Source of the DNA: a virus
DNA: 64,000 bases
Virus record (IMG/VR): IMGVR_UViG_3300044632_002025
Direction: 5' to 3' (one strand)
Shown here: piece by piece, positions 1,195-59,912 of the stretch
How the letters are laid out: each line of letters opens with the position of its first letter
Numbering within the stretch: position 1 is the first letter of the stretch
Made by a program: the position numbers and the translations under genes
Notes under the pieces: model-generated
Told to the model about the DNA's origin: nothing
What the model saw: the letters and a program-made list of their open reading frames with translations, nothing else
Database searches by the model: none

Positions 1195-1686
1195 ATGAGA
1201 AAGAAAGACGTTAGAATGAGCAAAGAGGTCGTGGAACAAACCAAAAAATTGTTCCAAATCTATAAACTGGGAGGGGTGTCTGTTAGGACTTTAGCAGAAC
1301 GGTTCGATATTCCCTGGACTACTTTAAGAGATAGATTTCGTTCCCAATATGGAAAACAGTATACCAAACATAGAGCAGATGAAGGGACTGTCCATGCTGT
1401 GATTAAAGAACATTTAAGTCGTCTAGAAGGTATTCACTTACGCAGGGCGGCTGAATGGTATCGGAAGAATCAAGCAGAACTCCTAATGCAAGCTCTTGAA
1501 GACCAAATGAATCCAGGGCAACGACCTAAAGTATATACCGAACGTCGTATGGATTCTGATACCAAAGCTATGTGTCGTTTGAACCATGATATAGGGTCTT
1601 CTCCTTATTTATCCGATGGTAGGTATGAACCTAAAATCGATGGTGAAGATTCAGACGAACCTTTACCATCAGACTTTTGGGATTAA
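1195..1686 (+). CDS. putative helix-turn-helix DNA-binding protein
   Basis: GGVSVRTLAERFDIPWTTLRDRF looks like an HTH. It lies next to the palindromic iterons. Confidence 0.5.
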   Translation: MRKKDVRMSKEVVEQTKKLFQIYKLGGVSVRTLAERFDIPWTTLRDRFRSQYGKQYTKHRADEGTVHAVIKEHLSRLEGIHLRRAAEWYRKNQAELLMQALEDQMNPGQRPKVYTERRMDSDTKAMCRLNHDIGSSPYLSDGRYEPKIDGEDSDEPLPSDFWD

Positions 1687-1688
1687 TT

Positions 1689-1718
1689 GGGTCTAACGGG
1701 GTCTAACGGGGTCTGACC
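1689..1718. repeat. three tandem decamers GGGTCTAACG/GGGTCTGACC
   Basis: Direct reading of the sequence. Confidence 0.8.
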
Positions 1719-1747
1719 CATCCTCAACCCTACCTGACCCCTCCTGA

Positions 1748-1768
1748 CCCCTTTGGAAGGGGTTTTTT
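1748..1768 (+). terminator. rho-independent terminator CCCCTT-tgg-AAGGGG-TTTTTT
   Basis: Hairpin plus T6. A near-identical element lies at 59809-59829. Confidence 0.7.
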
Positions 1769-1804
1769 ATTGTCAACCCCCAGTCTGCCCCGGTTAAGCT
1801 GGGG

Positions 1805-1996
1805 GGTGGTTCAAATGTACTAGACAAAGATGAACTGGGGGGGGTAGGGGGGGGTTCTCTTTTTTCAGGGCGACCCTTCCTATTCCATCCCCCCCAAGTT
1901 TGACAGGGCTTAACTGGGTTTGACCCCTAGACCCCCTTTTACCTTGGGTATGAGTATTTATACCTATCCCTAAAGACATAGTACGGGGTTTGACCC
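1805..1996 (-). repeat. repeat module M copy 1 (TATAAATA block, G/C-run box, TAGTACATTTG block)
   Basis: Its reverse complement is colinear with 3128-3255 and 60837-60990. 1861-1996 is a ~135-bp direct repeat of 2200-2336. Confidence 0.75.
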
Positions 1997-2173
1997 GACC
2001 AGACCCCGTTTAACCACTTCCACCCAACCTGACCCAGTTAGCTAAGGGTGGAAGTGGGGGGGTTCTTGGGTTTTTTTATGGAGACCTCCTTGATTCCACT
2101 TGGTCGGATTGGGTTGAATCTGGTTTGACCCTGCCAGCCCCAGCCTAAGCCAACCAGCCCCAGCCATTCCTTA

Positions 2174-2336
2174 CTAAGGGGGTAGGGGGGTTAGGTTGGT
2201 TTTTCAGGGCGACCCCCCTTATTTCATCCCTCCCAAGTTTAACAGGGCTTAACTGGGTTTGACCCCCCAGACCCCCTTTTACCTTGGGTATGAGTATTTA
2301 TACCTATTTCTAAAGACATAGTACGGGGTTTGACCC
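2174..2336 (-). repeat. repeat module M copy 2
   Basis: Direct repeat of copy 1 at 340-bp spacing. It includes ACCTTGGGTATGAGTATTTATACCTAT. Confidence 0.75.
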
Positions 2337-2497
2337 TGCCAGACCAGTCTTAGCCAACCAGTCCCAACTATTCTATACTAGGGGGGTAGGGGGGGTTAGG
2401 TTGGTTTTTATAACGGACAGTTATAACTCCGCACCTGGTCTGACCTGTTTTAGCCCGGTTCAACCCCAGTTTAATACATTTGTACTATATAAATCCA

Positions 2498-2536
2498 CAA
2501 CTGGGGGGGTTCGAGGCATTTTTCACCCCCCTAGTT
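2498..2536. repeat. G-run/C-run hairpin CAACTGGGGGGG...CCCCCCTAGTT
   Basis: Inverted arms with a 16-nt T-rich loop. Confidence 0.7.
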
Positions 2537-2560
2537 TCCCCTTTAGACTCAGATGAAACC

Positions 2561-2630
2561 CAGTCTGGCCATGTTCAACCCAGTCTGGTCATGTTCAACC
2601 CCGTCTGGCCATGCTTAACCCAGTCTGGTA
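2561..2630. repeat. 3.5 tandem copies of the 20-mer CAGTCTGGCCATGTTCAACC
   Basis: Exact 20-bp period (2561, 2581, 2601, 2621). Confidence 0.85.
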
Positions 2631-2650
2631 CAAGTGTACTAAGGGTCTAA

Positions 2651-2701
2651 CAAGTAGGGGGGTTACTTGAATCTGAAATTCTCTCCGAACCCCCCCACTT
2701 G
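2651..2701. repeat. G-run/C-run hairpin CAAGTAGGGGGGTT...AACCCCCCCACTTG
   Basis: 14-nt inverted arms with a 23-nt loop. Confidence 0.7.
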
Positions 2702-2840
2702 CCCCCTTAGACCCAGGTGAAACCTAGACAGGACAAGGTTTCCAGGTTGCCCCCTGACTTCCCCTATTAGGACTTAATTGCCGTTGTTGATGATGGTTAG
2801 ACCAAGTTTAAAATCTGTCAAAAGTTCAGTGTTTTAAGGG

Positions 2841-2869
2841 TTGCAAAATATTCACGCCCAAGTTATAAT
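2841..2869 (+). promoter_or_regulatory. strong sigma70-type promoter TTGCAA-N17-TATAAT
   Basis: Near-consensus hexamers. The spacer contains ACGCCCAA. No protein gene follows for ~600 nt. Confidence 0.6.
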
Positions 2870-2883
2870 AGGGAAAGAGTCTT

Positions 2884-3127
2884 GAGGTCAAATTATACTC
2901 TAGGACAAACATTTAACCTAACCATTTTTAGGAAATGTATAAATGGATACATTTTGGGTCAAACTGGGGCTTAAGGGACACCAACATCGTCAAACCATTC
3001 CAGCATGGGGTTTGCGGGGGATTTGCCAAGTCGAAACTGGAGTAGATAGGGCTAACTGGGAAATTGATGCCCTGGACATAAAAAACCAAAGCAACCCCCC
3101 CACTTGATGGGTTAAAACAGGGCTATA
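2884..3127 (+). repeat. conserved blocks i-iv shared with 60587-60836
   Basis: GAGGTCAAATTA.ACTCTAG.ACAAACATTT.ACCT; AAATGTATAA..G.TACATTTTGGGT; GGACA.CAACATCG.CAAACCATTCCAGCA.GGG..TTGCGGGG. Confidence 0.8.
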
Positions 3128-3345
3128 TCTTTAGAGGTAGGTATAAATACTCATACCTTGTACATAACGGTTAGTCGAGGGCAGTGCGGGGAGAATTAGT
3201 CCTCCCCTGTAGAAAAAACTGACCTACCCCCCCCCACCCCCCCTAGGAGATGAGAGACTGGTTAGTCGAAGGCAGTGCGGGGGGAATTAGGTCTCCCCCG
3301 TAGAAAAAAACTTATCCACCCCCCTACCTACCCCGTTGACGGGTT
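3128..3345 (+). repeat. repeat module M copy 3 plus two ~92-bp tandem subunits (GGCAGTGCGGGG...AGAAAAAAC...CCCCCC)
   Basis: CTTTAGAGGTAGGTATAAATACTCATACC, then subunits at 3170-3258 and 3262-3345. Confidence 0.75.
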
Positions 3346-3380
3346 AACCTAGAAACTCTACGGGGTCGGGACTTCAGTAA

Positions 3381-3422
3381 CAACTAGGGGGGTTATTTTA
3401 GGATTCAGACCCCCCCTAGTTG
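3381..3422. repeat. perfect hairpin CAACTAGGGGGG-N18-CCCCCCTAGTTG
   Basis: 12-nt perfect inverted arms. Confidence 0.8.
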
Positions 3423-3504
3423 GGAATTTAATACCTAAAACAAATAGGGTTTTATCAACTCTAAACAGGTTAGACATTGATAAAACCTATTCGCTATGTT
3501 AGCC

Positions 3505-4242
3505 TTACTCTAAACCAATTTGTTTGATTTTGCCAATTTCACAAGCCTTTTTGACAGCTTCAAATGGTTCTAAACCATCTTCAACAATAAATCTGGAAGC
3601 TAATTCTTCTGCAAACTTTAGCTCTCTTAAGGCTTCAGTAGGAATATGGTCACGGATAGCTCCTGATTCCTTAAGTTGATAGTGGTCTTTGGCTTGTTTT
3701 GATTTAACGCCTAAGACTAGCCCATTGAGATAGTCTGTAGAATTAGGATAGATGAACTTTTTGTAATTAGAACTTAGTTCTGGGTTATTTTCCAAATAAT
3801 ATTTGAAAGAGTCAGTTAGGGTGCGACGGGCGATTTTGCTTTCAACTCTGGTTTGGAGACGGTCATTGCGTTCTTCTTCAGTACGTTGAATATTGAAAGC
3901 ATGGTCTAAGCGACGTTCTAAAGATTCTACCAAACAGGAAAAAGCTACGGCTTGGCATTTTTTGTTGCCCAGTTGAGCATAAGCACTTACTATAGTACAA
4001 AAGGTCTCCATACCCATAAGTCTAGCTAATGCGTTAGTACCCTCTACATGAACCTTCTCAACAGAAAGATTGTCCAGTGCCAGTAAGGGTTTGGCGTATT
4101 TTTTACCGGTTGAGTCACCTATAAGAATATCTAATGCTTTGCAACCATTTTGGGACATAGCATAGCTACCATCAGGTAATTGATACCCTTCAAGTTGGAT
4201 GCCGCCTAATTTAATTGTGGCTTTTTTGGCTTTGTTGTTCAT
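3505..4242 (-). CDS. hypothetical DNA-binding/antirepressor-like protein
   Basis: ORF 3505-4287. Met16 (MNNKAKK, nt 4242) is preferred because the upstream codons overlap a promoter-like TATAAT. The family is not recognised. Confidence 0.45.
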   Translation of the reverse strand: MNNKAKKATIKLGGIQLEGYQLPDGSYAMSQNGCKALDILIGDSTGKKYAKPLLALDNLSVEKVHVEGTNALARLMGMETFCTIVSAYAQLGNKKCQAVAFSCLVESLERRLDHAFNIQRTEEERNDRLQTRVESKIARRTLTDSFKYYLENNPELSSNYKKFIYPNSTDYLNGLVLGVKSKQAKDHYQLKESGAIRDHIPTEALRELKFAEELASRFIVEDGLEPFEAVKKACEIGKIKQIGLE

Positions 4243-4344
4243 AGCTAAATTCCAGTCTGTGAAAAAGAATAACAGACCATAAATCAATTATAGCAATTTG
4301 TCAATGTTCAGACAATGTGAAAAATACGGAAATCCTGACCCCTG

Positions 4345-8563: not shown

Positions 8564-9520
8564 CTAAAGATGAGAATCTTGGTCAGAATCAAAAAAGTCC
8601 TTTGCTTCTAAATCGGAGTTAAATGGCTTAACCCATTGGGTAATTTTTTGGCGGATTTCAGTCCCATTAAGAATCCTGGTATCTTTTTCCATAGCAGAGT
8701 CACCAGACTCACCTGTAAAAAATTTACGGGCAGGAACCCAACCAATAAACCCGCCACACATCACAGATGCGTCGATGGCTACGGCAGTATGCTCTAAAGC
8801 TGACCAATGCTTTGAGCTAACTAGACGTAAAAATAGTTTAACATCCTTTTCCACATCCATATTCCCTTCGTGGTTTAGGTAAGACACTCTCGCACAACGA
8901 GAGGCTGACAGAGCAATGAGTAAAAGAGTATTACCTTTGTACAGTTCTCTTTCCTCATGGGTTACATAGGGCAGATGCAAACCACCATCTGATAGGATAT
9001 AAGCAGAACATTTGTGGTAAGCCTCAAGCATTAAGCGGGCTACTTTTCTAATCTCTGGCTGGGCTTTTTCAGAAGTACGAAGTTCAAAAAAGTTGAACCA
9101 TTGAGTGCCGGTCAGCACCACATCCACCATTTGAAAAGGCTCAGTAAGTCGGTTCACAATTTCTTTATGAACCCCAAGCAGGTTCAATAAATTAGCCCAA
9201 AACCGTTGGGAGTGCATGGAGCAGAACCATACAAGGTCAGCTAATTTAGCCTTTAGACCCGTCAGGGGCTTACCAGCTTGCATTCCTGACTTATTCGTAC
9301 CCCATTGGTCAGGGTGATAGGGATTCTCTACTAATTTTCGGTCTTTTTTCTTAATCGGAACAGCCCGATTCGACTCGGTATTAGAGGACAAAATACGGTG
9401 TTTATTGAGTTGAGCTAAGACAAATCGGGGAATACGAATTTGAAAAGTGGTAATAGTGTCGCCTGTGATGGAATTGACACTTTGTTCGATGACCTTAGCG
9501 TGGTATTGGGTAGGTTTCAA
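8564..9520 (-). CDS. thyX: flavin-dependent thymidylate synthase (ThyX-like)
   Basis: KHRILSSNTESNR fits the ThyX signature (R/K)HRxxSxxxxSxR. Confidence 0.65.
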   Translation of the reverse strand: MKPTQYHAKVIEQSVNSITGDTITTFQIRIPRFVLAQLNKHRILSSNTESNRAVPIKKKDRKLVENPYHPDQWGTNKSGMQAGKPLTGLKAKLADLVWFCSMHSQRFWANLLNLLGVHKEIVNRLTEPFQMVDVVLTGTQWFNFFELRTSEKAQPEIRKVARLMLEAYHKCSAYILSDGGLHLPYVTHEERELYKGNTLLLIALSASRCARVSYLNHEGNMDVEKDVKLFLRLVSSKHWSALEHTAVAIDASVMCGGFIGWVPARKFFTGESGDSAMEKDTRILNGTEIRQKITQWVKPFNSDLEAKDFFDSDQDSHL

Positions 9521-10044
9521 GAATTTGCTCCTAATTTCTTAATTTTTCTGACTTCTGACTTATAAGTTCGCAGGGTAAGACCCAGAGTTTTAGCTATTAC
9601 CTCTTGGGTAAGACCCATTAGACGTTTGCGGACAATTTGCTTTTGGAGGGGGGTGAGTTTTGACCAGAAGAGGTTCAGGGTCATTTGGTATTCAGTGGAA
9701 TCGACTAGGGATGCCATATTGTCTAGGGGAAAATCTCGAAGTTGGCATTCCATGACATAGGTTTTGTGCCGAATAAGGCGGAACCTTTTGCGAATATCCA
9801 ACCAGCAATAGCTGGTGAGCGTTCCTTTGTTGGGGTTCCAAGTCTTAAGTTTTTCTAGAACCAGACAAAGACCTTCCTGAAAGTAATCCTCTCCTTTGAC
9901 TGACGTATCACGCATAGCACGACGGATAGCGGGGATTTGGGATTTAACCAAATTTAGTTTAGACGTTTCACAGGCTTGTTGTTCGATGGTTAGATGACAG
10001 TATTCCATGACAGAGGTTTTGAATTTTAGACGGCTTAACCCCAC
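9517..10044 (-). CDS. phage sigma-70 family (ECF-like) factor
   Basis: Region-2-like YFQEGLCLVLEKLKTWNPNKGTLTSYCWLDIRKRF and region-4 HTH LTQEVIAKTLGLTLRTYKSEVRKIKKL. GTG start. Confidence 0.6.
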   Translation of the reverse strand: MGLSRLKFKTSVMEYCHLTIEQQACETSKLNLVKSQIPAIRRAMRDTSVKGEDYFQEGLCLVLEKLKTWNPNKGTLTSYCWLDIRKRFRLIRHKTYVMECQLRDFPLDNMASLVDSTEYQMTLNLFWSKLTPLQKQIVRKRLMGLTQEVIAKTLGLTLRTYKSEVRKIKKLGANS

Positions 10045-33246: not shown

Positions 33247-33870
33247 TTGTTTATGAACACTGATAACTGGTTTATGCTCGTTCCTTCTAGAATAGCCTCC
33301 TCCAAATTAGGGCTTCACCCCCATACCCTTAGAAAATATTTTGATGACGGTTTGATTAAGGGGATTAAAAACCCCGCAGGTCAACGATATTACGATGTTG
33401 AATCCTATTTAGCCGACCCTCTTGACAAACCCTCAGTTATCTGTTATGCTAGGGTTAGTTCAAGAAAACAGTCTGCTGATTTGGCTAGACAGGTCGATTT
33501 CTTGAAATCAGTTTACCCCGATTCGGAGATTATTACAGATGTCGGTTCTGGACTTAACTTCAAAAGAAAAGGTATTCAAACCCTATTGGACAGATTACTC
33601 TCAGGAGATTAGTTCACTCTTGCTATCTCCCACCGAGATAGACTCTGCCGATTCGGATTTGAATTGTTCCAATACCTTTTCCTCAAGAACGGTGGAACAA
33701 TCGTGGTTCTCAACAATACTCAAACAAGTCCCGAACAAGAACTTACCCCCTACTTACTATCAATCCTCCATATTTTCAGTTGCAGAGTCTACGGACTTAG
33801 AAAAAACAACAAAAATATCGAGGAAGATAAGACTTTACCCCGACAAAACTCAACAAAATCTACTGAATGA
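33247..33870 (+). pseudogene. tnpA: IS607-type serine recombinase TnpA interrupted by one in-frame TAG (33610-33612)
   Basis: MerR-like HTH, catalytic YARVSSRKQ..DLARQ, then ...LLSGD*FTLAISHRDRLCRFGFE...SPEQEL...FSCRVYGLRK, all in a single frame. Confidence 0.8.
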
Positions 33871-34969
33871 GCTAATCTCTCAATATCGGTTTGTTTACAA
33901 TAAAACTGTAGATTTGCTGATAAACGGTAAAATTGGGGCTAATTGTGATTTAAAGACTAAGAAAGAAAGAAAAGGTTTGTCAAGCTATGACATCCGTGAC
34001 ACATTCTTTCAATTTTGGTTGGAGAAACACACTTGGTTAACCAATTGCATAAACATAAATACAGTAAAGGAGGCTATCACCGAAGCTATCAATGCCCAAC
34101 AAGTAGGGTTTGCCCAATTAAAAGCGGGGTTAGTTGAAAGGTTTGAGTTAAAATTCAAATCTAGAAAAAAGCCCCGACAAACTATCAACCTAAAAAAGGA
34201 AATACTCTCAGCTAAGGGAGTGTTAGCCCCCCGAAACCTAAAACTAGAAACCCCCCTAAAATCAGACACAAGGGGTAGTTTTGATGGTCTAACCCTCACA
34301 ACTACTGGGGGATTGTTCTACCTAATTTATACTGAAGATATTGCTAATAATCCAGAAGTCGAAAACCAAGACCTAAAGATTGTAGCATTAGACCCTGGTG
34401 TTAGAACTTTCCAAACTATTTTCTCGTCTAATGGGGTTTTCGGTAAATTTGGTCAAGAAGCCATTAAAAGATTGGCTAAACTATGCCATAAAGCAGACAA
34501 AATCCAATCTAAAATAGCTAAAACCAAAAACCAAAGTCGGATTAATTATCTAAGAATGTGGCAACAACGAACCACATTAAAGATAAGAAATCTGAGGAAA
34601 GAACTCCACCACAAAATTAGTAGATTTCTAGTAGATAACTTTGATGTAATCCTGCTACCCTGCTTTAACACCGGTGAAATGGTTAAAAAGAAGGACAGAA
34701 AAATCAATAAATCTACTACCCGTTCAATGTTAAATTTTGGACATTATGAGTTTAAGGAATTATTAAAGTTCAAAGCCAATAAATTTGGTAAAAAACTAAT
34801 AATAGTTTCTGAGGCTTATACCTCCAAAACCGTATCATGGACAGGGGAAATAATAGCTAATCTAGGTGGGAGGAAAGTAATCAAATCTCAGAGTAACGAA
34901 AGTTTAGACAGAGATTTAAATGGAGCCAGAGGAATCCTAATAAAATTCTTAACTGAGCTACCCCAATAG
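33539..34969 (+). CDS. tnpB: TnpB (OrfB) RuvC-like transposon-associated protein; true start uncertain (GTG 33692 possible)
   Basis: RKIRLYPDKTQQNLLNELISQYRFVYNK, ALDPGVRTF (RuvC-I Asp), AYTSKT, DRDLNGARGI (RuvC-III Asp). Confidence 0.8.
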   Translation: MSVLDLTSKEKVFKPYWTDYSQEISSLLLSPTEIDSADSDLNCSNTFSSRTVEQSWFSTILKQVPNKNLPPTYYQSSIFSVAESTDLEKTTKISRKIRLYPDKTQQNLLNELISQYRFVYNKTVDLLINGKIGANCDLKTKKERKGLSSYDIRDTFFQFWLEKHTWLTNCININTVKEAITEAINAQQVGFAQLKAGLVERFELKFKSRKKPRQTINLKKEILSAKGVLAPRNLKLETPLKSDTRGSFDGLTLTTTGGLFYLIYTEDIANNPEVENQDLKIVALDPGVRTFQTIFSSNGVFGKFGQEAIKRLAKLCHKADKIQSKIAKTKNQSRINYLRMWQQRTTLKIRNLRKELHHKISRFLVDNFDVILLPCFNTGEMVKKKDRKINKSTTRSMLNFGHYEFKELLKFKANKFGKKLIIVSEAYTSKTVSWTGEIIANLGGRKVIKSQSNESLDRDLNGARGILIKFLTELPQ

Positions 34970-37237: not shown

Positions 37238-39013
37238 TTAATAGCCAGAATTATAATTTCCGTAGAGACTATCATCTTGGGGGACACTGGGTATTAGGGT
37301 ATTTGCACCCATACTATCGATGATATTCTCAATATTCCGATGCTCCAAAGTAGCCAAAACGTAACGTAAAGCATCGCAAAAATGGTCTCTTTGCCCTTCA
37401 GCCACTTTCTCGGTAACATTCCCTTCTTTAGACTCTCGGTGATATGCAGTCATGTCCTCAAAAACCCTTTTACAGGATTTGGCAATAAAAAGTTTATCTT
37501 GGTGTAATAAAGTGTTAACCACCCCATTACCTTCTGATACCCTATTATAGCCCTCCATTAACTTGGGAACACCCGCTTTTCTCATGGTTAAAATTCTTCC
37601 CGGTTGTGACGGGTCAGCATATCCACGGTTGACACCATGCGTTCTGGCTAACTCAATGGCTTTCTCATTGTGGACTCGTTGTTCAATGGCCGCTTTAGGG
37701 TTGGGATTTTCCCAACAATCAATCACAAAATAAGCGGCTCCCCGTCTTCCCACCACTACTAGGGCAGGATTCACATCTCCCCAGTCCACTCCGATATATA
37801 CTTGGTCAAATTTTGTCGGTAAATCGTCATCATCCAGTAAGTGTCTCTTATCTAAATCTGAGAATATCTGACCATCAAAAGATTCCCAAGATGCTAAAAA
37901 TTCTTGTCTAAAGATTTTTTCGGGTAATGACTCTTTGGTTCTTTGGATTTCATCAAGGGGAATAAAGGGATTATCATAAACTGTTTTTAAAAAACTAGCC
38001 CAATTAGGAACTTCACCACCTTGTAGGTAAAGACTATGGAAAAATGTACCTGCCCCCTTGGGCGTACCAATAATTAGAGATGTACTATTTTTAGTATCAA
38101 CTAAAGCAGGGCGAATCACTTCCGTCCATACAATAGGTTTTATATCTTGCATCTCATCTAATCCAGCAAAATATATCTTCAACCCCCGCATATTGTCGCC
38201 GTTATCTTCATTGGCTCCTCTGAGGATGATGTCTGGTTTATTTCCTTTAAAAACGATTCTGCATTCAGACTTAAAAATTCTTTTAACTGCTGGGTGTCCA
38301 TCTAGAATATTTACAAGTGGTTCCCAGTGGATTTGTTTAGCCTGTTTTAAGCTAGGCATAACGAGCAAAACGACGGGGGGTGAAGCTTTATCATAGTTGC
38401 CGTTGTAATTAATAGCCCTTTCGATTAAAGTAGTTAATAGTAGCCTGGAATTATGGGTAGGGATGTTACTTTTACTACATAGGAAAATCCCTCCTTCTAC
38501 TTGAATACACTTAGTTCGATGTCTTCCAACAGGGATTACATCGGCTATAAAAAAGCTTTCCCACGGATGCAAAATTTTACGAGGAACAGATAAATTAAGT
38601 TTTTTACTTCCCTTTTGAATGTTTTGATGGTAATAGAATATTTCCTCAGTAGTCCATGTGTTAGACTCTAACTTACGGTTTAGCTCCAAAACCCACTCAT
38701 GGTTTTTCCCTGCTCTGATAACCTGTCCATTTTCAAAGACAATATCGTAGCAATCATCTTCAAATACCTCGGTAGCCGCTAAAACTTTTACAGGTAAACC
38801 CTGTTCATTATATACAGTGTCCCCAGTGAAAATTTTCTTAATCGGTTTATAACCATTTTTGGTCAAAATAGGGGTGTTTTCTTCTAAATTTTTCCCAAAT
38901 CTCCTCGATGAAACCAAAACCTTGAATCTGGCAGGGTCTCCGAATACTTCTTGTTGTCCCGGGTGTAAATATAATTTTAATTTTCCAGGTTTTGCCATTA
39001 TCTCTACGCTCAA
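37238..39013 (-). CDS. terL: terminase large subunit, intein-containing
   Basis: Walker A SSRRFGK|S is reconstituted after removing aa 42-188. Also Walker B IYFAGLDE and nuclease motifs IGVDWGD and DHFCDALRY. Confidence 0.85.
   Translation of the reverse strand: MSVEIMAKPGKLKLYLHPGQQEVFGDPARFKVLVSSRRFGKNLEENTPILTKNGYKPIKKIFTGDTVYNEQGLPVKVLAATEVFEDDCYDIVFENGQVIRAGKNHEWVLELNRKLESNTWTTEEIFYYHQNIQKGSKKLNLSVPRKILHPWESFFIADVIPVGRHRTKCIQVEGGIFLCSKSNIPTHNSRLLLTTLIERAINYNGNYDKASPPVVLLVMPSLKQAKQIHWEPLVNILDGHPAVKRIFKSECRIVFKGNKPDIILRGANEDNGDNMRGLKIYFAGLDEMQDIKPIVWTEVIRPALVDTKNSTSLIIGTPKGAGTFFHSLYLQGGEVPNWASFLKTVYDNPFIPLDEIQRTKESLPEKIFRQEFLASWESFDGQIFSDLDKRHLLDDDDLPTKFDQVYIGVDWGDVNPALVVVGRRGAAYFVIDCWENPNPKAAIEQRVHNEKAIELARTHGVNRGYADPSQPGRILTMRKAGVPKLMEGYNRVSEGNGVVNTLLHQDKLFIAKSCKRVFEDMTAYHRESKEGNVTEKVAEGQRDHFCDALRYVLATLEHRNIENIIDSMGANTLIPSVPQDDSLYGNYNSGY
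38450..38890 (-). other. 147-aa class-3 mini-intein inserted in the TerL P-loop
   Basis: NLEENTPILT...GKNHEW (block B His and Trp)...TKCIQVEGG (block F Cys)...IPTHN|S (block G Thr-His-Asn, +1 Ser). Confidence 0.75.
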
Positions 39014-42240: not shown

Positions 42241-42972
42241 TTAACCGTTTATAGTGCTGAAAAATCCTTCTATTGCCTCTCTCACTTCTGGGTGATTTGC
42301 CGGATAAACTGCTATCTCTCGCATTGCCCCGTTGACTAACCGTTTCTCTTGTTGACTTAGTTGACGACAACTCTTTTTAACGTATTTTCCAAGTTGAGAC
42401 CGATTATCATGGGAAGGGTTAAATCCCATTTCTAGTGCAATCTCAACAACTCCTTGCAAGGAATCCCCAGTTAAAGTAGCCTGACTTGGCATTAAATCGG
42501 AAATAGCATGGTCAATTAGAAATTGGGCTAATCGGGGGTTATTTCGAGAAATCAATCCCTCAATTTCCACAACTGCCTTAGCTGTTTCAACAGCAACCTG
42601 ACGAGATGTTAATTTAGGCTGTTCTACATGGTGCAGACTAACTGTGCCAGTTGTGACTAGCGTTTTGATTTGCTGTAGCATCCAGATTTTGAACTTCACC
42701 GAACACCAACCAGCAAACTCTAAAGCGACTTCTTCAATTGCCCATGTTCCAGTAGTTGCAGGTAAGCCCCCAACGTTAGACACCATTACGGGAATCCCCG
42801 CAATGCCCTCAAACTCAGTCAGGAACTCGGTTGTAGCATTTAGTCGATTCCAATCATTAATCCGTTTCCCACTAGCCTTAGCCATATCGGTTAGACAAAC
42901 CCAGACCCGACCTTCACGATTTTCAAAGCGAATGTTGTTGGAGTTGAAATCAAAAACAGATAAATTAGACAT
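42241..42972 (-). CDS. KilA-N/Bro-N-type DNA-binding domain protein
   Basis: LSVFDFNSNNIRF...VWVCLTDMAKASGKRINDWNRLNATTEFLTEF. Confidence 0.6.
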   Translation of the reverse strand: MSNLSVFDFNSNNIRFENREGRVWVCLTDMAKASGKRINDWNRLNATTEFLTEFEGIAGIPVMVSNVGGLPATTGTWAIEEVALEFAGWCSVKFKIWMLQQIKTLVTTGTVSLHHVEQPKLTSRQVAVETAKAVVEIEGLISRNNPRLAQFLIDHAISDLMPSQATLTGDSLQGVVEIALEMGFNPSHDNRSQLGKYVKKSCRQLSQQEKRLVNGAMREIAVYPANHPEVREAIEGFFSTING

Positions 42973-46233: not shown

Positions 46234-46497
46234 ATGTACATTATAATTACACCGTGCGAAACATATCAAACCCCAGTTTTGACAGAGGTTGAGCAACAAG
46301 GTCTGGAAAGTGGTGAGTACACCATACTCAAGGTAATCTTCGATGGCTCTGATGAAGTAGTCCATCTAGATTGGACGGTACTCCAGGATTGGATTGAACA
46401 GAAAAAACAGGAAAAAAGAAATAACCTAAACCCCTTGACATCTAATCTACTCTCTGTTATACTGGGGTTATTAACCCAACAAAAACTGGTTAAGTGA
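46234..46497 (+). CDS. hypothetical protein; its last ~25 codons are a translated promoter cassette
   Basis: Intact ORF. The 3' end coincides with cassette copy 2. Confidence 0.35.
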   Translation: MYIIITPCETYQTPVLTEVEQQGLESGEYTILKVIFDGSDEVVHLDWTVLQDWIEQKKQEKRNNLNPLTSNLLSVILGLLTQQKLVK

Positions 46498-46549
46498 GAA
46501 CCAAGCTTAATCAATCAGGGTTAAACCCCCTTTAACTAGGGTAAAGCGG
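46430..46549 (+). repeat. promoter-leader cassette copy 2 (promoter 46435-46463)
   Basis: CCCCTTGACATCTAATCTACTCTCTGTTATACTGGGGTTA..ACCCAACAAAAACTGGTTAAGTGAGAACCAAGCTTAATCAATCAGGGTTAAACCCCCTTTAACTAGGGTAAA. Confidence 0.85.
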
Positions 46550-53300: not shown

Positions 53301-53311
53301 TATACGCCCAA
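53301..53311 (+). promoter_or_regulatory. start-associated motif core TATACGCCCAA
   Basis: 36 nt upstream of ATG 53347. Confidence 0.45.
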
Positions 53312-53346
53312 TGTCCTGTACAGAAGCATCATTCCCCCAATTTATA

Positions 53347-56300
53347 ATGGCCAGACGCAAAGGTAGAAAATTATACTCCCCTAATTCCCCCCAAGACCCC
53401 AGGAAATCCCGTGGCGGTAATATTAAAGATGGTATGGGGGTTGTTAAAGGTACTAATGTTAAAGGGGAAGCTTTTTCCTTTGACCCGTCTAAGCACAAAC
53501 GAGACCCCTTGACTGGTAAATGGGCTACTAAACCTGATGTGGTTAAGCCCCAAAAAGATAAGAAAAAAGCCACTAAACCCACTTCTTCCGAGGCTAAAAA
53601 AACTAAACCATCCTCCCCCTTCGCCAAATTTAGACAAAGGGTTCGTGATGCTTTAAAACAACAATTAATTAATTACGCAAAAAATAAATCAGATAAGTCT
53701 AAATCCACACCGTCTAAACCTGATTCTGTGTCAACTGTGCCAGTTAATGCTAAACCTATTGAGAAAAAGAATTTTACCCTGGATGACTATACTCAAAGAG
53801 GACAAGAAATTAGCTCTAAATATGGGTTGAGTGATAATAAGTTCTTAGGCAGACTGGCGAAGTTAATAGACAAATTACTCAGTTTCCAAGAAAAACCGTC
53901 ATTAACGCCTTCTGACATGGAGGAACTAAAAAAAATTAATGACGATATATTGGAGACACAAAAGAAGGCCTATGAAGACTTTGAGAAAAAAGTTGAACAA
54001 CTTTTAGACGACTATAGAGAAAATGCTTCAGATTTAGACATGGATAAAGTAATTTTAAAGACTAGATTTGTAAGAAATGGTTTTCCAAGAGATTTAAATG
54101 AGGACGTTGATATGGTGAGGGAAGCCTATAAAGATTTTCACTATCTCACTAACGGCAATATTATAGGCTTTCCCAATTTGTTGGATGTTAACAATGAAGG
54201 TAATAGCTATGCCGTTTACCCTAATAAACCCGCACAAAGTTCAATAGTCAGCATTGGGACATCTGGACAGGGGGAAGTTCCTCTGAGGCAGGCGACCTTC
54301 CATGAATTGGCGCACCTAGTTGAGCTTCATGTTCCTGGTCTCAAAGAAGCGTCTCTAGAGTTCCTGAAAAAACATAGTTACACTGGAACTCTAGAGAATT
54401 TTGATTACCTGGGTGTACCTATCTCAGGATATAAGGGGGACTTTATAGATGAATATGTGGGTAGATTTTACGTCCAAAATTCAGCCACAGAGGTTTTATC
54501 TACGGGATTTGAACGTTTAAGTAATCCAGATAGCGCATTTAAACTTTTTGTAAATTCTAATCATCACTTTAATTATATTCTTGGTGCGCTTGACCGTGTT
54601 AACTCTACTAGAAATTCTGAATCTTACCGGCTACCAAATAAATCTGTTAGGAAAATACCAAATAAATCTGCTGAGGAAATACCAAATAAATCTGCTGAGG
54701 AAATACCAAATAAATCTGCTGAGGCAAAGAATTTGACCCTAGATAACTACACTCAAAGAGGACAAGAAATTAGCTCTAAATATGGGTTGAACGATACTAA
54801 AACACTAGGAAAACTCCAAGAACTAAGTGGTATACTAAGAGAATTTAACACTAAAATAATGGGTATGTATGACGACCCTACTTTAACCGACTCCGACAGA
54901 GAAGAAGTTATACGTCAATTTGACGAGGTTTTCAAAAAACACAAAAATCTTGAAAAGAAATTTAGGGCAAAATTCGAGAAAAATGTTCAAAATCTTCTAG
55001 AATCCTACAAAGAAGCTAGTAAAGATTTAGACTTAGAGAAACTTTTGGAAAATTCTAAATTCACATTGTATGGGCAAGAACTAGATAAATCAGATAGGAA
55101 CGTGGATTTAGTGAAAGAAAGTGTTAAAGATTTCCACTCTCTTACTAAGGGGTTTCTGGGAGAATTGGTTCCTATGATTGACGTAGACAGAAATGGTTCT
55201 AGTTACGTCCGCTACCATCCAGATAAGCCAGAAAAATTGACACATATTAGAATCGGGGCTATTGGACTCGGTGATGAAGTATTTAAACTTCAGACCTTCC
55301 ATCAAATGGCTCACATTCTGGAATCCCACATACCTGGACTCCTAAAAGCATCTATGGAGTTCCTGAAAAAACATAGTTATTCGGGGCAAGAGGAAGACAT
55401 CGAACACAGGGGTATGACCTACAGAGGGTATAAAGGTGATTTTATAAATAATTATGTGGGTAGAACATACAACAAAGGGGTATCAGCCACAGAGGTTATA
55501 TCTACAGGTTTTGAAAGACTTCGTAACCCTACAGACGCATTTACTCTCTACACAGAATCAAACCATCACTTTAATTTTATTCTTGGGGTTCTAGATAGTA
55601 TTAACCAGACTGAGCCGCCTAAAACAAAATTAATGAGTAGCTTAACTCAAAAAAACTTAGACCCTAAACCAGAACCCGCAGAGCCAAAACCAACTACTCC
55701 TAAACAGGTTTCCAAAGAGTACACTGATACTATTAATTCTGCAAAATCTAAAATCTCCCAGTATAAACTGGATAGACTTGTCAAAGTTTTTGAAACTCAA
55801 GATGCCCAAATCAATGCGGAGCTAAAATCTTTAGACCCTAAAAACCCTGAAGACGTTGAAAAAGCCCAAAAACTTTTTGCTAGAAAACGTAAACTGAAGC
55901 AGTCTCTTGATACTTACCTTGAGAAACAGATGAACTTATTGTATCAAGAACTGCTTGATAATAATAATTCTGTAAACTCTGACCTCCTAGTGGGACAAAC
56001 TAATTTTCAAATAGGTGAATACACTAAAAATCTTAAACCAGCCAATACTGAAGACCCTATCTATAAAACTCACACTCCTGTAATTAGTAAGGCTTTGGCT
56101 GAATTTCATAAACTTACAGGGGGGATTCTGAACAACTTAGTCCCCCGTATAGGACTCAGCGAAAAAAAAAGAAGTTGGGCTGGATTCGATGCAAAAGAAC
56201 CCCAAAAAAATAATTATCTTTCTATATCTGTAACCCGTTCCAATGATGTTAAACCCTCAGTTTTTCATGAAGCGGCACACCTGTTGGAAGGGTCTGACCC

Positions 56301-56610
56301 TAAATTTGCCAACTTAGCTAAGGAATTTTTAGCTAAAAATAGAACTTCAGATGAACTTAAGCAAATAAAGGGTTATCCTGCTGGCGAAGTGGCTTACCCT
56401 GGAAACTGGGTTCACCCCTATGTGGGTAAAAATTATGAAAATGCCCCCTCCACAGAAGTAATTTCAATGGGTATAGAACGATTTGCTAGTCCTAGAGATA
56501 TGGCGGAATTTTATTTTAAAGATAAGGAACATTTTGCTCTAACTTTGGGGATTATAGAATCCCTTAAAGTCCCTGAACATCTAAAACCAAAACCTGCTAC
56601 AATATATTAG
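53347..56610 (+). CDS. large basic-N-terminus protein with three ~320-aa internal repeats, each with an HExxH-type motif
   Basis: HELAH (54301-54315), HQMAH (55300-55314), HEAAH (56266-56280), each followed by ..GYKGDF..YVGR.Y....ATEV(L/I)S.G.ER. The first track Met overlaps the upstream motif. Confidence 0.6.
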   Translation: MARRKGRKLYSPNSPQDPRKSRGGNIKDGMGVVKGTNVKGEAFSFDPSKHKRDPLTGKWATKPDVVKPQKDKKKATKPTSSEAKKTKPSSPFAKFRQRVRDALKQQLINYAKNKSDKSKSTPSKPDSVSTVPVNAKPIEKKNFTLDDYTQRGQEISSKYGLSDNKFLGRLAKLIDKLLSFQEKPSLTPSDMEELKKINDDILETQKKAYEDFEKKVEQLLDDYRENASDLDMDKVILKTRFVRNGFPRDLNEDVDMVREAYKDFHYLTNGNIIGFPNLLDVNNEGNSYAVYPNKPAQSSIVSIGTSGQGEVPLRQATFHELAHLVELHVPGLKEASLEFLKKHSYTGTLENFDYLGVPISGYKGDFIDEYVGRFYVQNSATEVLSTGFERLSNPDSAFKLFVNSNHHFNYILGALDRVNSTRNSESYRLPNKSVRKIPNKSAEEIPNKSAEEIPNKSAEAKNLTLDNYTQRGQEISSKYGLNDTKTLGKLQELSGILREFNTKIMGMYDDPTLTDSDREEVIRQFDEVFKKHKNLEKKFRAKFEKNVQNLLESYKEASKDLDLEKLLENSKFTLYGQELDKSDRNVDLVKESVKDFHSLTKGFLGELVPMIDVDRNGSSYVRYHPDKPEKLTHIRIGAIGLGDEVFKLQTFHQMAHILESHIPGLLKASMEFLKKHSYSGQEEDIEHRGMTYRGYKGDFINNYVGRTYNKGVSATEVISTGFERLRNPTDAFTLYTESNHHFNFILGVLDSINQTEPPKTKLMSSLTQKNLDPKPEPAEPKPTTPKQVSKEYTDTINSAKSKISQYKLDRLVKVFETQDAQINAELKSLDPKNPEDVEKAQKLFARKRKLKQSLDTYLEKQMNLLYQELLDNNNSVNSDLLVGQTNFQIGEYTKNLKPANTEDPIYKTHTPVISKALAEFHKLTGGILNNLVPRIGLSEKKRSWAGFDAKEPQKNNYLSISVTRSNDVKPSVFHEAAHLLEGSDPKFANLAKEFLAKNRTSDELKQIKGYPAGEVAYPGNWVHPYVGKNYENAPSTEVISMGIERFASPRDMAEFYFKDKEHFALTLGIIESLKVPEHLKPKPATIY
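54634..54729 (+). repeat. four tandem 24-bp repeats (IPNKSAEE linker)
   Basis: CCAAATAAATCTGCTGAGGAAATA starts at 54634, 54658, 54682 and 54706. Confidence 0.9.
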
Positions 56611-57150: not shown

Positions 57151-57202
57151 ACTTGTCCCCGCACTTCGCTTAGTTACCAGTAGTACACTTGTTCAAAAAA
57201 AG

Positions 57203-57245
57203 ATTCTCCCAGACAGTTGACATTTCTGGGAGAATATCATAGGAT
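57203..57245 (+). promoter_or_regulatory. promoter TTGACA-N17-TAGGAT bracketed by an 11-bp perfect inverted repeat ATTCTCCCAGA/TCTGGGAGAAT
   Basis: The inverted-repeat arms at 57203-57213 and 57225-57235 flank the -35. Confidence 0.6.
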
Positions 57246-57380
57246 AGAATCAAGCAAACAAACACGGAAAACAGGATGACGGGTAACGCTAAACAACCAA
57301 TCGAAACAACACAAATTCCTGTATCCGACGCTATAATTAGTTATCAGTTATCAACTATTTGGGACTAACAAAAAAAAAAA

Positions 57381-58340
57381 ATGAACCAATTTACCGAAAA
57401 ACTACCCAATCAAGTCACACTAGAGATGGTAAGCTTACCAGCAGGTGAGTTTCTCATGGGTTCTGCTGAAAGCGAGGATGAAAAGCCTCCACACCAAGTT
57501 AAAGTCAACAGTTTTGCTATTGGGAAATATCCCATTACTCAAGCACAATATCAAGCGGTAATGGGAACCAATCCCTCTTATTTTTATAATAATCCCCAAA
57601 ATCCGGTAGAAAGGATTAGTTGGAATGACGCTCAAGCCTTTTGTCAGAAATTGAGTCAAATAACCGGCAAAACCTATCGCCTACCCACAGAAGCGGAATG
57701 GGAATATGCTTGTCGTGCGGATACAACTACTCGCTATTATTTTGGTGATGTTGCCAATCAGTTAGGAAATTACGCTTGGTATGAAGGAAATTCTCAAAAT
57801 ACAACTCATCCTGTGGGTCAGAAAAAGCCCAATGCTTGGGGACTATATGACATGAGTGGTAATGTTTGGGAGTGGTGCGAGGACTATTGGCACGATAGCT
57901 ACGAAAATGCACCAAAGAATGGCAGTGCCTGGGTAACAAATGATAATGATTATCAGTTACTGCGGGGCGGTTCTTGGAGCGACCTTTTGGGTGACTGCCG
58001 TTCCGCTTACCGTTACTACGACAGCCGCCACAACTACGACGACACCGACGGTTTTCGGGTAGTCTGCGACAATCAAATGTTCTTTTACAACGCCTTTAAT
58101 TTCCCCCTTCTTACCTCTAGTGTAAAAGAATTTGCTGTAAAGCTCGAAAAAATGCTAGTAAAGTTAGGACATCGTTTAGCAATAAGCGAAGATGGTCTCT
58201 ACTGTAAAATATATTTCCACCAACCCTATTCCGGTGTTTATCCAGGTGTTTTTGATACTCAAAAAGTGTATCAAATGCTAAATAATTTTACCGAACATAA
58301 AGATTATTTATGGGCTTTTCTCCAAGATTGCAAAGCTTAA
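57381..58340 (+). CDS. FGE-sulfatase (SUMF1/DUF323)-domain protein with an 89-aa C-terminal extension
   Basis: LPAGEFLMGS...HQVKVNSFAIGKYPITQAQY...YRLPTEAEWEYACRA...GLYDMSGNVWEWCED...LRGGSW...GFRVV. Confidence 0.75.
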   Translation: MNQFTEKLPNQVTLEMVSLPAGEFLMGSAESEDEKPPHQVKVNSFAIGKYPITQAQYQAVMGTNPSYFYNNPQNPVERISWNDAQAFCQKLSQITGKTYRLPTEAEWEYACRADTTTRYYFGDVANQLGNYAWYEGNSQNTTHPVGQKKPNAWGLYDMSGNVWEWCEDYWHDSYENAPKNGSAWVTNDNDYQLLRGGSWSDLLGDCRSAYRYYDSRHNYDDTDGFRVVCDNQMFFYNAFNFPLLTSSVKEFAVKLEKMLVKLGHRLAISEDGLYCKIYFHQPYSGVYPGVFDTQKVYQMLNNFTEHKDYLWAFLQDCKA

Positions 58341-58373
58341 TTCATTAATTATTGGTTGCTAGTCTGCGACAAT
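58060..58373 (+). repeat. 300-bp segment flanked by a 14-bp direct repeat TAGTCTGCGACAAT (58060-58073 and 58360-58373)
   Basis: Exact repeats 300 bp apart. The second copy restores the ancestral ...GFRVVCDN-stop junction seen in the paralogue. Confidence 0.75.
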
Positions 58374-58423
58374 TAATCAGTTATCAGTAGTACACTTGTT
58401 CAAAAAAAGATTCTCTCATACAC

Positions 58424-58452
58424 TTGACATTTCTGGGAGAATCGCATAAGAT
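58424..58452 (+). promoter_or_regulatory. promoter TTGACA-N17-TAAGAT (paralogue of 57217-57245; left operator arm degenerate)
   Basis: ATTCTCTCATA replaces ATTCTCCCAGA. Confidence 0.55.
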
Positions 58453-58522
58453 AGCATCAGGCAAACAAACACGGAAAACAAGATTACGGGTAACGATAAA
58501 CAACCAGTCGAACGCTATAATC

Positions 58523-58550
58523 AGTTATCAGTTATCAGTTATCAGTTATC
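58523..58550. repeat. (AGTTATC)x4 heptamer repeat in the 5'UTR
   Basis: Also x2 at 57339-57352 and x3 at 59210-59230. Confidence 0.9.
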
Positions 58551-58580
58551 AACTATTTGGGACTAACAAAAAAAAAAAAA

Positions 58581-59207: not shown

Positions 59208-59232
59208 TTAGTTATCAGTTATCAGTTATCAG
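59206..59232. repeat. (AGTTATC)x3 heptamer repeat
   Basis: Direct reading of the sequence. Confidence 0.9.
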
Positions 59233-59257
59233 CAATTAGAGTTTTAGTGTGATTGTC

Positions 59258-59710: not shown

Positions 59711-59808
59711 CAAGTGGGGGGGGTTCAAGGCTTTTTTCAAAATACCTAGACTACTACCAATACTTTTTAGCCCCAGCAATGGACATAACCAATAACTAAT
59801 TTGACCAG

Positions 59809-59829
59809 CCCCTTCCAAAGGGGTTTTTT
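59809..59829 (+). terminator. rho-independent terminator CCCCTT-cca-AAGGGG-T6
   Basis: Paralogue of 1748-1768. Confidence 0.7.
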
Positions 59830-59857
59830 ATTGTCCGTTATTTGACGGGGTTGGGAC

Positions 59858-59912
59858 ACAACTGGGGGGGGGTTCTGAGATTTTTCAAGAATGGGATAAC
59901 CCCCCTAGTTGT
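59858..59912. repeat. G-run/C-run hairpin ACAACTGGGGGGGGG...CCCCCCTAGTTGT
   Basis: Inverted arms with a 27-nt loop. Confidence 0.7.

Follow-up and report, generated by a model that had tools for sequence, protein, structure and literature searches.

The promoter-early stem-loop (PeSL) repeats of T4-type phages are concentrated in plastic regions of the genome and mediate modular shuffling (PMC2839356; PMC4122927). In Mic1, repeated promoter-containing motifs were described in non-coding regions by the genome paper (Yang et al. 2020; PMC7156551), and the immediate-early genes of this phage flank non-coding gaps (PMC11237433). The DNA that we analysed, a stretch of 64,000 nt referred to here as the window, comes from a Mic1-like Microcystis siphophage of the same lineage (TerL 68% and major capsid protein 82% identical to those of Mic1). 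A further point of reference is provided by the stoperators and start-associated sequences of mycobacteriophages, which are single 13-14-bp repressor sites distributed genome-wide and oriented with transcription.

Two colinear non-coding paralogues of 0.5-0.6 kb are present in the window, segment A at about 2821-3340 and segment B at about 60528-61060. A sequence-only reading of this DNA had proposed such a diverged pair, marked by an ordered series of seven blocks, and our alignments bear the pair out: blastn matched 2821-3245 to 60528-60946 with 66% identity over 439 nt (E 3.9e-46), a profile made from the copies matched both segments (E about 1e-92 and 1e-102), and all of the listed blocks were found at the positions assigned to them. 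Identity along the pair is uneven, with 85-95% in the conserved blocks and 35-50% in the linkers; the observed window-to-window variance was reached in 0 of 5000 permutations, and uniform neutral decay of a recent duplicate would not give this pattern. The cautious proposal of a functional RNA or DNA scaffold fits, but its extension to a large ornate RNA does not, as discussed below. The only reading frame common to A and B, ORF 2943-3107, is broken by indels between the two (one of 7 nt and one of 1 nt) and by an in-frame TGA in two strain variants (L003 and L024). On the basis of this six-frame comparison a coding role was rejected, in agreement with the earlier claim that no real ORF is present.

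Beyond their first ~150 nt, A and B are made up of short modules, namely an A-run/C-run box with NANTTG at its end, a TATAAATACTCATACC box and polyG/polyC stem-loops. The same modules are found again, in both orientations, within two intergenic arrays, R1 (1690-3500) and R2 (59710-61100). On the plus strand of A, a first module (3078-3165) has an A-run/C-run box that ends in CCCCCCCACTTG (3078-3106) and then CTATATCTTTAG..GTATAAATACTCATACC (3123-3157), and further copies lie on the minus strand at 1945-2138 and 2285-2463 (E 7e-11 and 2e-11). Next come two tandem plus-strand modules (3169-3240 and 3260-3334, together an 84% direct repeat at 3166-3340), each with a GGCAGTGCGGGG..CCCC stem-loop and then an A-run/C-run box, followed by a decayed promoter-like CCCCGTTGACG. 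The right end of R1 carries a polyG/polyC stem-loop at 3381-3422, CAACTAGGGGGG-N18-CCCCCCTAGTTG, which is a perfect 12-bp inverted repeat (-22.7 kcal/mol, z -2.59), and a 15-bp inverted repeat at 3443-3491 that folds at -22.8 kcal/mol (z -6.84) on the minus strand and at -16.2 kcal/mol (z -4.30) on the plus strand. This last repeat is likely to be the terminator of the minus-strand gene 3505-4287, on which side it is followed by UUUGUUU, and likely also to set the 3' limit of any plus-strand transcript from 2841. The product of gene 3505-4287 is one of the HTH proteins of the phage, another being that of 1195-1686.

The left arm of R1 (1835-2470) contains the modules of the 3' half of A in reverse, as two tandem ~340-nt units (1840-2131 and 2178-2466; a 76% tandem repeat) with inverted matches to 3109-3157 and 3212-3263; every motif copy in this arm is on the minus strand, as are the nhmmer matches. 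The region between the arms (2498-2735) has two polyG/polyC hairpins, at 2498-2537 and 2651-2701, as well as a 20-bp iteron, AACCCAGTCTGGYCATGTTC, in 3.5 copies (2557-2629). In R2, the minus-strand left arm (59711-60005), with reversed G-run/T-run boxes and polyG/polyC hairpins, begins directly after ORF 59249-59710, whose terminator lies at 59807-59825, and the plus-strand modules of B (60787-61059) comprise an A-run/C-run box (60787-60815), a TATAAATACTCATACC box (60850-60866) and two more modules of stem-loop plus A-run/C-run box. Thus, in every array the modules of the left arm point left and those of the right arm point right. The motifs are largely confined to the arrays or exceed expectation: CCCCCCNANTTG has 13 exact copies, none of them outside the two arrays; 14 of the 19 G-run/T-run boxes are inside them; GAAAAAA-N8-AACCCCCC, which also stands directly before TTGACA at 61060, has 13 matches against 0.6 expected; and GGTCARAC has 18 against 3.65 expected. 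Hairpins of 11-12 bp of the polyG/polyC type lie at 1833, 2499, 2651, 3381 and 59859.

Simple assignments for the modules were considered. The C-run/NANTTG element was rejected as a complete sigma-70 promoter, as most copies have no usable or conserved -10 hexamer at 16-18 nt, which suggests that many modules are ex-promoters or act in another role. The G-run/T-run boxes, which may resemble the mitochondrial CSBII element and R-loop origins, were likewise rejected as canonical intrinsic terminators: a simple terminator scan of the right arms gave few canonical terminators (none in A, on the minus strand, and two in B), and the T-run usually falls in the hairpin loop.

Predicted promoters are associated with both segments. 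The promoter claimed for A, TTGCAA-N17-TATAAT on the plus strand at 2841-2869, is present and matches the sigma-70 consensus at 10/12 positions, a score that is unremarkable by itself, the scan having returned 21 sites in 6 kb where 10.6 were expected. Five strain variants all keep the two hexamers unchanged and differ in the spacer and discriminator. The -10 hexamer of this promoter falls within the 3' arm of an imperfect 18-nt inverted repeat (2758-2775/2860-2877), and the homology of A and B begins at its predicted start site. This -10 hexamer is lost in B. A promoter that had been assigned to B does exist at 60339-60367 (plus strand, 11/12 with TG), but between it and B lies a leader cassette of 210 nt (promoter and cassette together span 60339-60545), closed at 60516-60545 by an AT-rich hairpin (z -2.95) and a T-run. 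The cassette recurs at 46429-46545 and, on the minus strand, at 10190-10028 (95-96% matches), and the copy before B takes in the first ~30 nt of the sigma-factor gene (9517-10044). At the other end of B, the block described as a TTGAYAAAACCTATT end is present, but it serves as the -35 region of a 12/12 consensus promoter, TTGACA-N18-TATAAT (61060-61089, plus strand), the upstream half of which is an A-run/C-run box and which is the predicted promoter of the tRNA-like gene that follows. In all, R2 carries four promoters at 11/12 or 12/12 within 1.3 kb. In two strains (L002 and L023) the A-run/C-run box forms CCCCCCTACTTGACG-N17-TAGGAT (TTGACG-N17-TAGGAT) before a 214-aa gene, and the main promoter family of the phage is bracketed by a C4/G4 stem (AACCCC-TTGACA-N17-TATACT-GGGGTT).

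Searches for diverged homologues of A and B (IMG/VR pattern scans, a metagenome scan and protein-anchored locus searches) returned only near-identical strain variants, of the A type (L001, L003, L005 and L024) or the B type (L002, L004, L006, L007 and L023); seven other loci (L017-L021, L025 and L026) were chance matches of 18-22 nt. There was no blastn match of 2400-3600 in 50,697 phage records, and nhmmer searches of Mic1 and of four relatives whose capsid identity is 78-81% found weak module-level matches only and no A/B core. None of 185,579 genomes contains block 1, 2, 3 or 5; a host repeat, host CRISPR repeat or host-derived mobile element was therefore rejected as the source of these blocks.

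The strain variants differ from one another in whole modules, homopolymer lengths and downstream genes, and the junctions fall exactly at the C-run/TAGTTG motif. Variant L001 has one copy of the tandem module instead of two, together with a downstream replacement, and its mosaic junction lies in the 3' arm of the stem-loop 3381-3422. L002 and L023 switch to another gene immediately 3' of AAAAAACCAAGAACCCCCC, that is, after the C-run. Between strains the A-run varies from 7 to 14 nt, and the C-run varies in length too. The arrays also sit where gene order departs from that of Mic1. Among A-type strains, a AGAGGTAGG/AGAAATAGG polymorphism equals the state in B and in the left-arm copies, which suggests conversion among the repeats. 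This would be expected if A and B were a decaying segmental duplication with no function of its own, its blocks kept alike by patchy gene conversion, and the lost -10 hexamer of B is in keeping with such decay, as is the right end of A, which resembles a shortened copy of the tRNA-like gene's promoter together with its first bases. However, the blocks, at 85-95% identity, differ by scattered transitions rather than containing identical tracts, which argues against recent conversion; the A/B-specific blocks have no third copy that could act as donor; and the promoter hexamers of A are kept. We therefore regard mere decay as distinctly unlikely.

The best explanation, in which we place middling confidence, is that A and B are paralogous segments of intergenic arrays built of regulatory cassettes that work like the PeSLs of T4-type phages. 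In this model, the TTG(AC) -35-type element of a module would be preceded by an A-rich tract and a C-run, with a -10-like TATAAATACT box additionally in some copies, and the polyG/polyC stem-loops would be able to stop or attenuate incoming transcription. Recombination among the short repeats would duplicate, delete and swap the intervening DNA and might in this way have produced the A/B pair, the variable number of modules and the strain-specific downstream genes. The conserved blocks would then be those parts of the cassettes on which selection acts, with gene conversion perhaps homogenising them as well, and the linkers would drift freely. Promoter 2841 probably makes an early non-coding leader that runs through the 150-nt domain and the modules, up to 3443-3491; B, its promoter lost, sits inside a cluster of four rightward promoters that are predicted to be strong. 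The shortage of -10 hexamers and of canonical terminators described above counts against this model.

The sequence-only reading had instead suggested a large structured RNA, with GOLLD (RF01998) and ROOL (RF03087) as possible relatives. Like these and other large ornate RNAs, A and B are non-coding, several hundred nucleotides long and carried by a phage; they contain conserved blocks behind a promoter, and a tRNA-like gene follows B. That gene (61096-61293, plus strand) had also been noticed before, and it does have a 7-bp acceptor stem and a T arm, along with a short D-like arm, a 7-bp anticodon-like arm with an A at the U33 position and a ~125-nt insert. Its ends match tRNA-Thr(GGU) genes and its fold scores z -2.19, but neither ARAGORN nor the Rfam tRNA model calls it. 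Scanning of the whole window with the Rfam covariance models recovered only tRNA-Met at 40755 at the gathering score, and in 1600-3600 and 59600-61500 only chance miRNA-type matches at E up to 5, with no match to GOLLD, ROOL or any other large phage RNA family. Single-sequence folding energies are no better than those of dinucleotide shuffles (z +0.79 for A, -0.95 for B and -1.32 for the full 625 nt; overall span +0.79 to -2.47). The A/B consensus fold scores z -3.1 on the plus strand, as such an RNA might, but -5.05 on the minus strand, which points to inverted repeats at the DNA level and not to one functional RNA strand, and double changes occur at two pairs only, from the single comparison of A with B, the other copies being near-identical variants. 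Furthermore, four of the seven blocks, namely the A-run/C-run box, the TATAAATACTCATACC box, the GGCAGTGCGGGG subunits and the TTGAYA end, are array modules, which either recur reversed in the two left arms (1835-2470 and 59711-60005) or belong to a promoter; half of the unit consists of modules found in both orientations. Module number and homopolymer length differ among near-identical strains, which is unexpected for a tightly folded RNA of fixed architecture. We consider it extremely unlikely that A and B are copies of one ~0.6-kb RNA of this kind. The case carries a caution for RNA discovery, that repeated regulatory DNA, and not folded RNA, can yield block-wise conservation behind a promoter.

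The cassette model leaves one part of the segments outside its explanation, namely the 5' domain with its 45-nt block, about 90% identical between A and B. Profile positions 1-160, which cover this domain of ~150 nt with two small hairpins and the block, match A and B only. In A (2875-3030, plus strand) the domain comprises an AT-rich leader, hairpins H1 (2879-2906) and H2 (2932-2955) and the conserved block (2976-3020); in B (60578-60740, plus strand), which has no -10 hexamer of its own, the corresponding elements are at 60582-60609, 60636-60657 and 60686-60729. The small hairpins have z-scores of -1.75 to -3.0. A discrete regulatory RNA of small size, or else a structured leader, could correspond to the first 150-300 nt of A, perhaps also of B, and be made early from promoter 2841. 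In it, the two hairpins and a long-range helix (2914-2924/3048-3058) would leave the 45-nt block unpaired to bind a protein or a target RNA; this would be compatible with cassettes in the 3' half. In favour of such an RNA, A and B are homologous from the predicted start site onward, the hexamers of the promoter are conserved, and the 5' blocks are absent from host genomes. Pairing in H1 survives one double change (C-G to U-A) as well as U-G/C-G changes, also within A-type strains, H2 is kept with a U-A to U-G change, a helix of TTRACCTRNC with GRYAGGGYYAA pairs through 2-3 double changes between A and B, and the consensus fold of the domain reaches z -2.0 to -2.7 against column shuffles. However, A versus B is effectively one independent comparison, so this covariation carries no statistical weight, and the two arms of the long-range helix are oppositely oriented copies of the repeated GGTCAAA motif, an arrangement that would look like compensation. 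In addition, single sequences of the domain fold at z of only -0.23 (A) and -1.25 (B), the fold signal is stronger on the minus strand, B has no promoter of its own, and a duplex scan against 91 ORF start regions gave no target with energies better than shuffled queries. We judge such an RNA unlikely.

The layout of R1 raised the question of replication. A promoter followed by an AT-rich unwinding region (2885-2955) and G-clusters in the transcript (2955-3070), beside the iterons, could be a transcription-activated origin, formed by the arrays or by the A/B units in them. The composition read directly from the sequence, the presence of iterons and the two-fold symmetry of the arrays are consistent with this, as is a cumulative GC skew minimum near the window ends, between B and A. 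We take the layout of A and B to be like that of the T4 oriF/oriG, T7 and ColE1 origins, and use this likeness as a lead only. However, the skew follows gene orientation too, no promoter lies directly upstream of B, and Mic1 has at least four or five such arrays, which is above expectation for origins. An origin function is accordingly, in our estimation, very unlikely.

The arrays of Mic1 bear on the cassette model as well. Mic1 contains analogous 199-nt modules (A8-TAAAGTTAY-C6-8) at 13 sites in non-coding gaps, with minus-strand copies followed by plus-strand copies, and 7 TATAAATACT boxes; locus L014 shows the same layout. In Mic1 the left- and right-facing layout is independent of the orientation of the flanking genes, which would be predicted neither from a promoter role alone nor from a terminator role alone. 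One could speculate that the arrays are an orientation-dependent insulator/promoter system common to Mic1-like cyanophages and, jointly, that the ~150-300-nt 5' domain of A and B is a new early regulatory RNA with two hairpins, a long-range helix and a single-stranded 45-nt block. We think it improbable that both parts hold; if they did, a PeSL-type system would for the first time be known beyond the T4-like myoviruses.

Bloom-forming Microcystis is the host of Mic1-like phages, which are being considered for bloom control and whose genomes have unusually long non-coding gaps beside immediate-early genes. Should promoter/stem-loop cassettes, stacked in these gaps, double as recombination joints, this would explain how early transcription is organized and why close relatives differ so strongly in gene order and accessory genes, and the PeSL concept, so far one of T4-type myoviruses, would then cover a cyanobacterial siphovirus too.

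Compared with Mic1 itself, the window has the same long non-coding gaps full of repeats with predicted promoters, and ATCAGTT heptamer repeats are present in it as well. The motifs listed for Mic1 are other families, at 66-71 kb of that genome, and the paper that lists them (PMC7156551) describes neither the A-run/C-run modules and their layout in two arms nor the 5' domain of A and B. With their short asymmetric motifs, many intergenic repeats within one phage lineage and orientation rules, the arrays are reminiscent of stoperators. They differ from these in being composite modules stacked in a few arrays with two opposed arms, and no binding protein is known. The likeness to PeSLs is one of predicted function, blastn of 2400-3600 against the phage records having given no match, and we do not class the element as a member of that family. 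Both are short intergenic repeats with a sigma-70-type promoter (here a predicted one, and in some copies only), an A/T-rich tract upstream of the -35 element and stem-loops rich in polyG/polyC (PMC2839356; PMC4122927), both cluster in plastic regions near small genes, and in both the junctions of insertions, deletions and replacements between close relatives fall at cassettes. Here, a promoter within the repeat is predicted at 61060-61089 (12/12), at 2841-2869 (10/12) and in the L002/L023 box, most other copies having no -10 hexamer; the A/T-rich tract is found in the arrays as the GAAAAAA element; the stem-loops are represented by the 11-12-bp G/C hairpins and the C4/G4 stem around the main promoter family; and the junctions are those of the module deletion and replacement in L001 and of the replacement after the C-run in L002 and L023. 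In contrast to the PeSLs of T4-type phages, the modules described here belong to a cyanobacterial siphovirus, many of them are without a -10 hexamer, and they are longer (about 90-340 nt) and stacked in arrays with left- and right-facing arms.

The two non-coding segments A (~2821-3340) and B (~60528-61060) are colinear paralogues, as the sequence-only reading had proposed: blastn aligns 2821-3245 with 60528-60946 (E 3.9e-46), a profile made from the copies matches A and B with E values of 1e-92 and 1e-102, and all of the blocks named in that reading were found in place. Identity between the copies is uneven, at 85-95% in the blocks and 35-50% in the linkers, and the observed windowed variance of identity was reached in 0 of 5000 permutations. 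The weaker form of the proposal, a constrained non-coding scaffold, is supported, and the absence of a real ORF also holds. Indels of 7 nt and 1 nt distinguish A from B; in just one frame (ORF 2943-3107 of A) do the two copies give a like reading of the 45-nt block, and in the A-type variants L003 and L024 a TGA interrupts this frame at codon 5. The peptides flanking this shared frame are unrelated between A and B. Elsewhere, at 42750-42808 (- strand), a 26-nt stretch within a KilA-N gene shares 92% identity with the 3′ portion of B's 45-nt block (nhmmer E 0.009), a likeness that is probably due to chance.

The stronger claim, that A and B encode a large structured phage RNA of the GOLLD or ROOL kind, is not supported by family membership, folding energy or strand preference. 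Rfam scans of the two regions with E as high as 5 gave no credible family, and the sole match in the window at the gathering score was a tRNA-Met at 40755. Folding energies did not differ from those of dinucleotide shuffles, either for the A core, the B core and full A (z +0.79, -0.95 and -1.32) or for the two 5′ domains (z -0.23 and -1.25). In a column-shuffle test the consensus fold scored z -3.1 on the + strand and -5.05 on the - strand, and the stronger - strand value is expected from DNA-level inverted repeats. Double changes were seen in two pairs (eight distinct sequences counted), all from the single A-versus-B split; searches of a phage collection, IMG/VR, JGI metagenomes and 185,579 genomes returned only near-identical A- or B-type strain variants and chance matches. 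A profile search of the window showed that only the first ~150 nt are unique to A/B, comprising block 1 and its inverted repeat (AGGTCAAAT), a hairpin (AAATGTAT) and the 45-nt block. Within this 5′ domain, pairing of hairpin H1 (2879-2906) is kept despite one C-G to U-A change and U-G/C-G changes, also among A-type strains, that of hairpin H2 is retained too, and a long-range helix (2914-2924 with 3048-3058 in A; 60617-60626 with 60753-60763 in B) survives 2-3 double changes. Such maintained pairing would favor a small RNA or structured leader made from the 5′ domain, but each helix arm is a copy of the recurrent GGTCAAA motif, the two facing opposite ways, and a target scan gave nothing exceeding shuffled controls, and we consider this RNA unlikely.

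The promoter at 2841-2869, previously described as near-consensus, matches at 10 of 12 positions, a score unremarkable by itself; its hexamers are nevertheless conserved, both being invariant across five strain variants with a variable spacer. A/B homology starts at its predicted start site. The -10 hexamer is absent from B, which lies 210 nt downstream of promoter 60339-60367, beyond a leader cassette and then an AT-rich hairpin with a T-run. A probably makes an early non-coding leader from 2841 that ends at the inverted repeat 3443-3491 (fold z -6.84 on the - strand), which would mainly be the strong predicted terminator of the convergent gene 3505-4287. The TTGAYAAAACCTATT motif regarded as the end of B is present on the + strand, and it belongs to a 12/12 promoter (61060-61089) whose upstream half is the A-run/C-run box.

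A and B are parts of larger intergenic arrays, R1 (1690-3500) and R2 (59710-61100), rich in a few motif families nearly restricted to them. All 13 exact copies of CCCCCCNANTTG and 14 of 19 G-run/T-run boxes lie within the arrays; GAAAAAA-N8-AACCCCCC has 13 matches (0.6 expected) and GGTCARAC 18 (3.65 expected), and polyG/polyC hairpins of 11-12 bp are frequent. In R1 and R2 alike, left-arm motif copies lie exclusively on the - strand and those of the right arm, which is A or B itself, exclusively on the + strand; the 3′ half of A/B recurs inverted at 1945-2138 and 2285-2463. At the center of R1 (2557-2629) a 20-bp iteron, AACCCAGTCTGGYCATGTTC, is repeated 3.5 times in tandem, and the related CCAGTCTGG and CCAGACC motifs are dispersed in the left arm of R1. 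The phage's main promoter family, AACCCC-TTGACA-N17-TATACT-GGGGTT, has a C/G stem around it, and R2 carries four promoters that score 11/12 or 12/12 in a stretch of 1.3 kb. Most boxes are without a -10 hexamer, and by scan the right arms have few canonical terminators. A 175-aa ORF (9517-10044, - strand) with a sigma-70 region 4 domain, 41% identical to Mic1 gp36, is a phage-encoded sigma factor, and a subset of the non-canonical boxes might be recognized by it. A family of nearly identical promoter cassettes, AACCCCTTGACA-N17-TATACTGGGGTT, has about seven members, at 46429, 46579, 47886, 51288, 52648 and 60333 (+) and at 10190 (-); those at 46429, 60333 and 10190 (-) have a common 110-nt leader (95-97% identity), and the one upstream of B includes ~30 nt from the beginning of the sigma-factor gene.

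The arrays also differ among strains. In the B-type loci L002 and L023, B's A-run/C-run box is followed by TACTTGACG-N17-TAGGAT and then a different 214-aa gene, and these loci lack both the second module and the tRNA-like gene; the A-type locus L001 has one GGCAGTGCGGGG module fewer and another gene 3′ of hairpin 3381-3422. A-run and C-run lengths vary likewise. The tRNA-like gene (61096-61293, +; fold z -2.19) lies downstream of promoter 61060-61089. Its acceptor stem (7 bp) and its T arm exactly match the ends of Firmicute tRNA-Thr(GGU) genes; the D-like arm is short, the anticodon-like stem spans 7 bp and has A in place of U33, and ~125 nt are inserted 5′ of the T arm. Neither ARAGORN nor Rfam called this gene. 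A candidate small RNA of ~225 nt (60108-60334, +) follows a TG-extended 11/12 promoter (60073-60101) and is bounded 3′ by a hairpin and U-run. Its fold (MFE -65.8 kcal/mol, z -3.48; 0 of 200 shuffles as stable) gives a structural signal exceeding that of A or B, and Rfam returned no match for it.

In IMG/VR, a single 72,948-bp contig carries A and B together. The window encodes a large terminase, portal, major capsid protein, scaffold, tail proteins, primase, thymidylate synthase, PhoH and a TnpB-like transposase, and the terminase (68%) and capsid protein (82%) identities to Microcystis phage Mic1 indicate a Mic1-like cyanobacterial siphovirus. The large terminase (37238-39013, -; 591 aa) aligns to Mic1 TerL (Mic1 1-2859) in three pieces; Mic1 TerL has two inteins (PMC7156551), and the alignment fits their predicted absence here. 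The TnpB-like gene lies at 33539-34969 (+; 476 aa), and its Mic1 counterpart is among the earliest genes expressed (PMC11237433). An FGE-sulfatase-domain gene and its promoter region are duplicated in tandem at 57172-59229 (86-90% identity), with ATCAGTT heptamer runs on both sides resembling those reported from Mic1 and the Microcystis genome (PMC7156551). A 1099-aa ORF (53311-56610, +) has ~1 kb internal repeats of 72-82% identity and, at 54632-54727, three 24-nt tandem repeats.

The A/B core is not detectable in Mic1. The non-coding DNA of Mic1 has promoter-containing repeated motifs (PMC7156551), and its immediate-early genes adjoin non-coding gaps (PMC11237433). In these gaps a 199-nt module with A8-TAAAGTTAY-C6-8 occurs 13 times, in clusters each ordered as - copies and then + copies. 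This two-armed layout does not track flanking-gene orientation in Mic1 and is also seen in a third lineage (L014). Mic1 carries seven TATAAATACT boxes as well. The promoter-early stem-loop cassettes (PeSLs) of T4-type phages combine polyG/polyC stem-loops with a sigma-70 promoter that is preceded by an AT-rich tract, cluster in plastic regions and mediate modular shuffling (PMC2839356, PMC4122927). Because their features match, we interpret A and B as composite cassette segments that are paralogous, for whose modules we infer promoter and terminator activities. Recombination among modules would produce and remodel these segments, and the conserved blocks would be cassette parts. This reading does not account for the boxes without a -10 hexamer, the scarcity of canonical terminators in the right arms or the layout's disregard of neighboring genes in Mic1. 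The likeness to PeSLs is one of function, as predicted here, and not of sequence; by this analogy, A and B are a lineage-specific version of phage regulatory repeats already known in kind.
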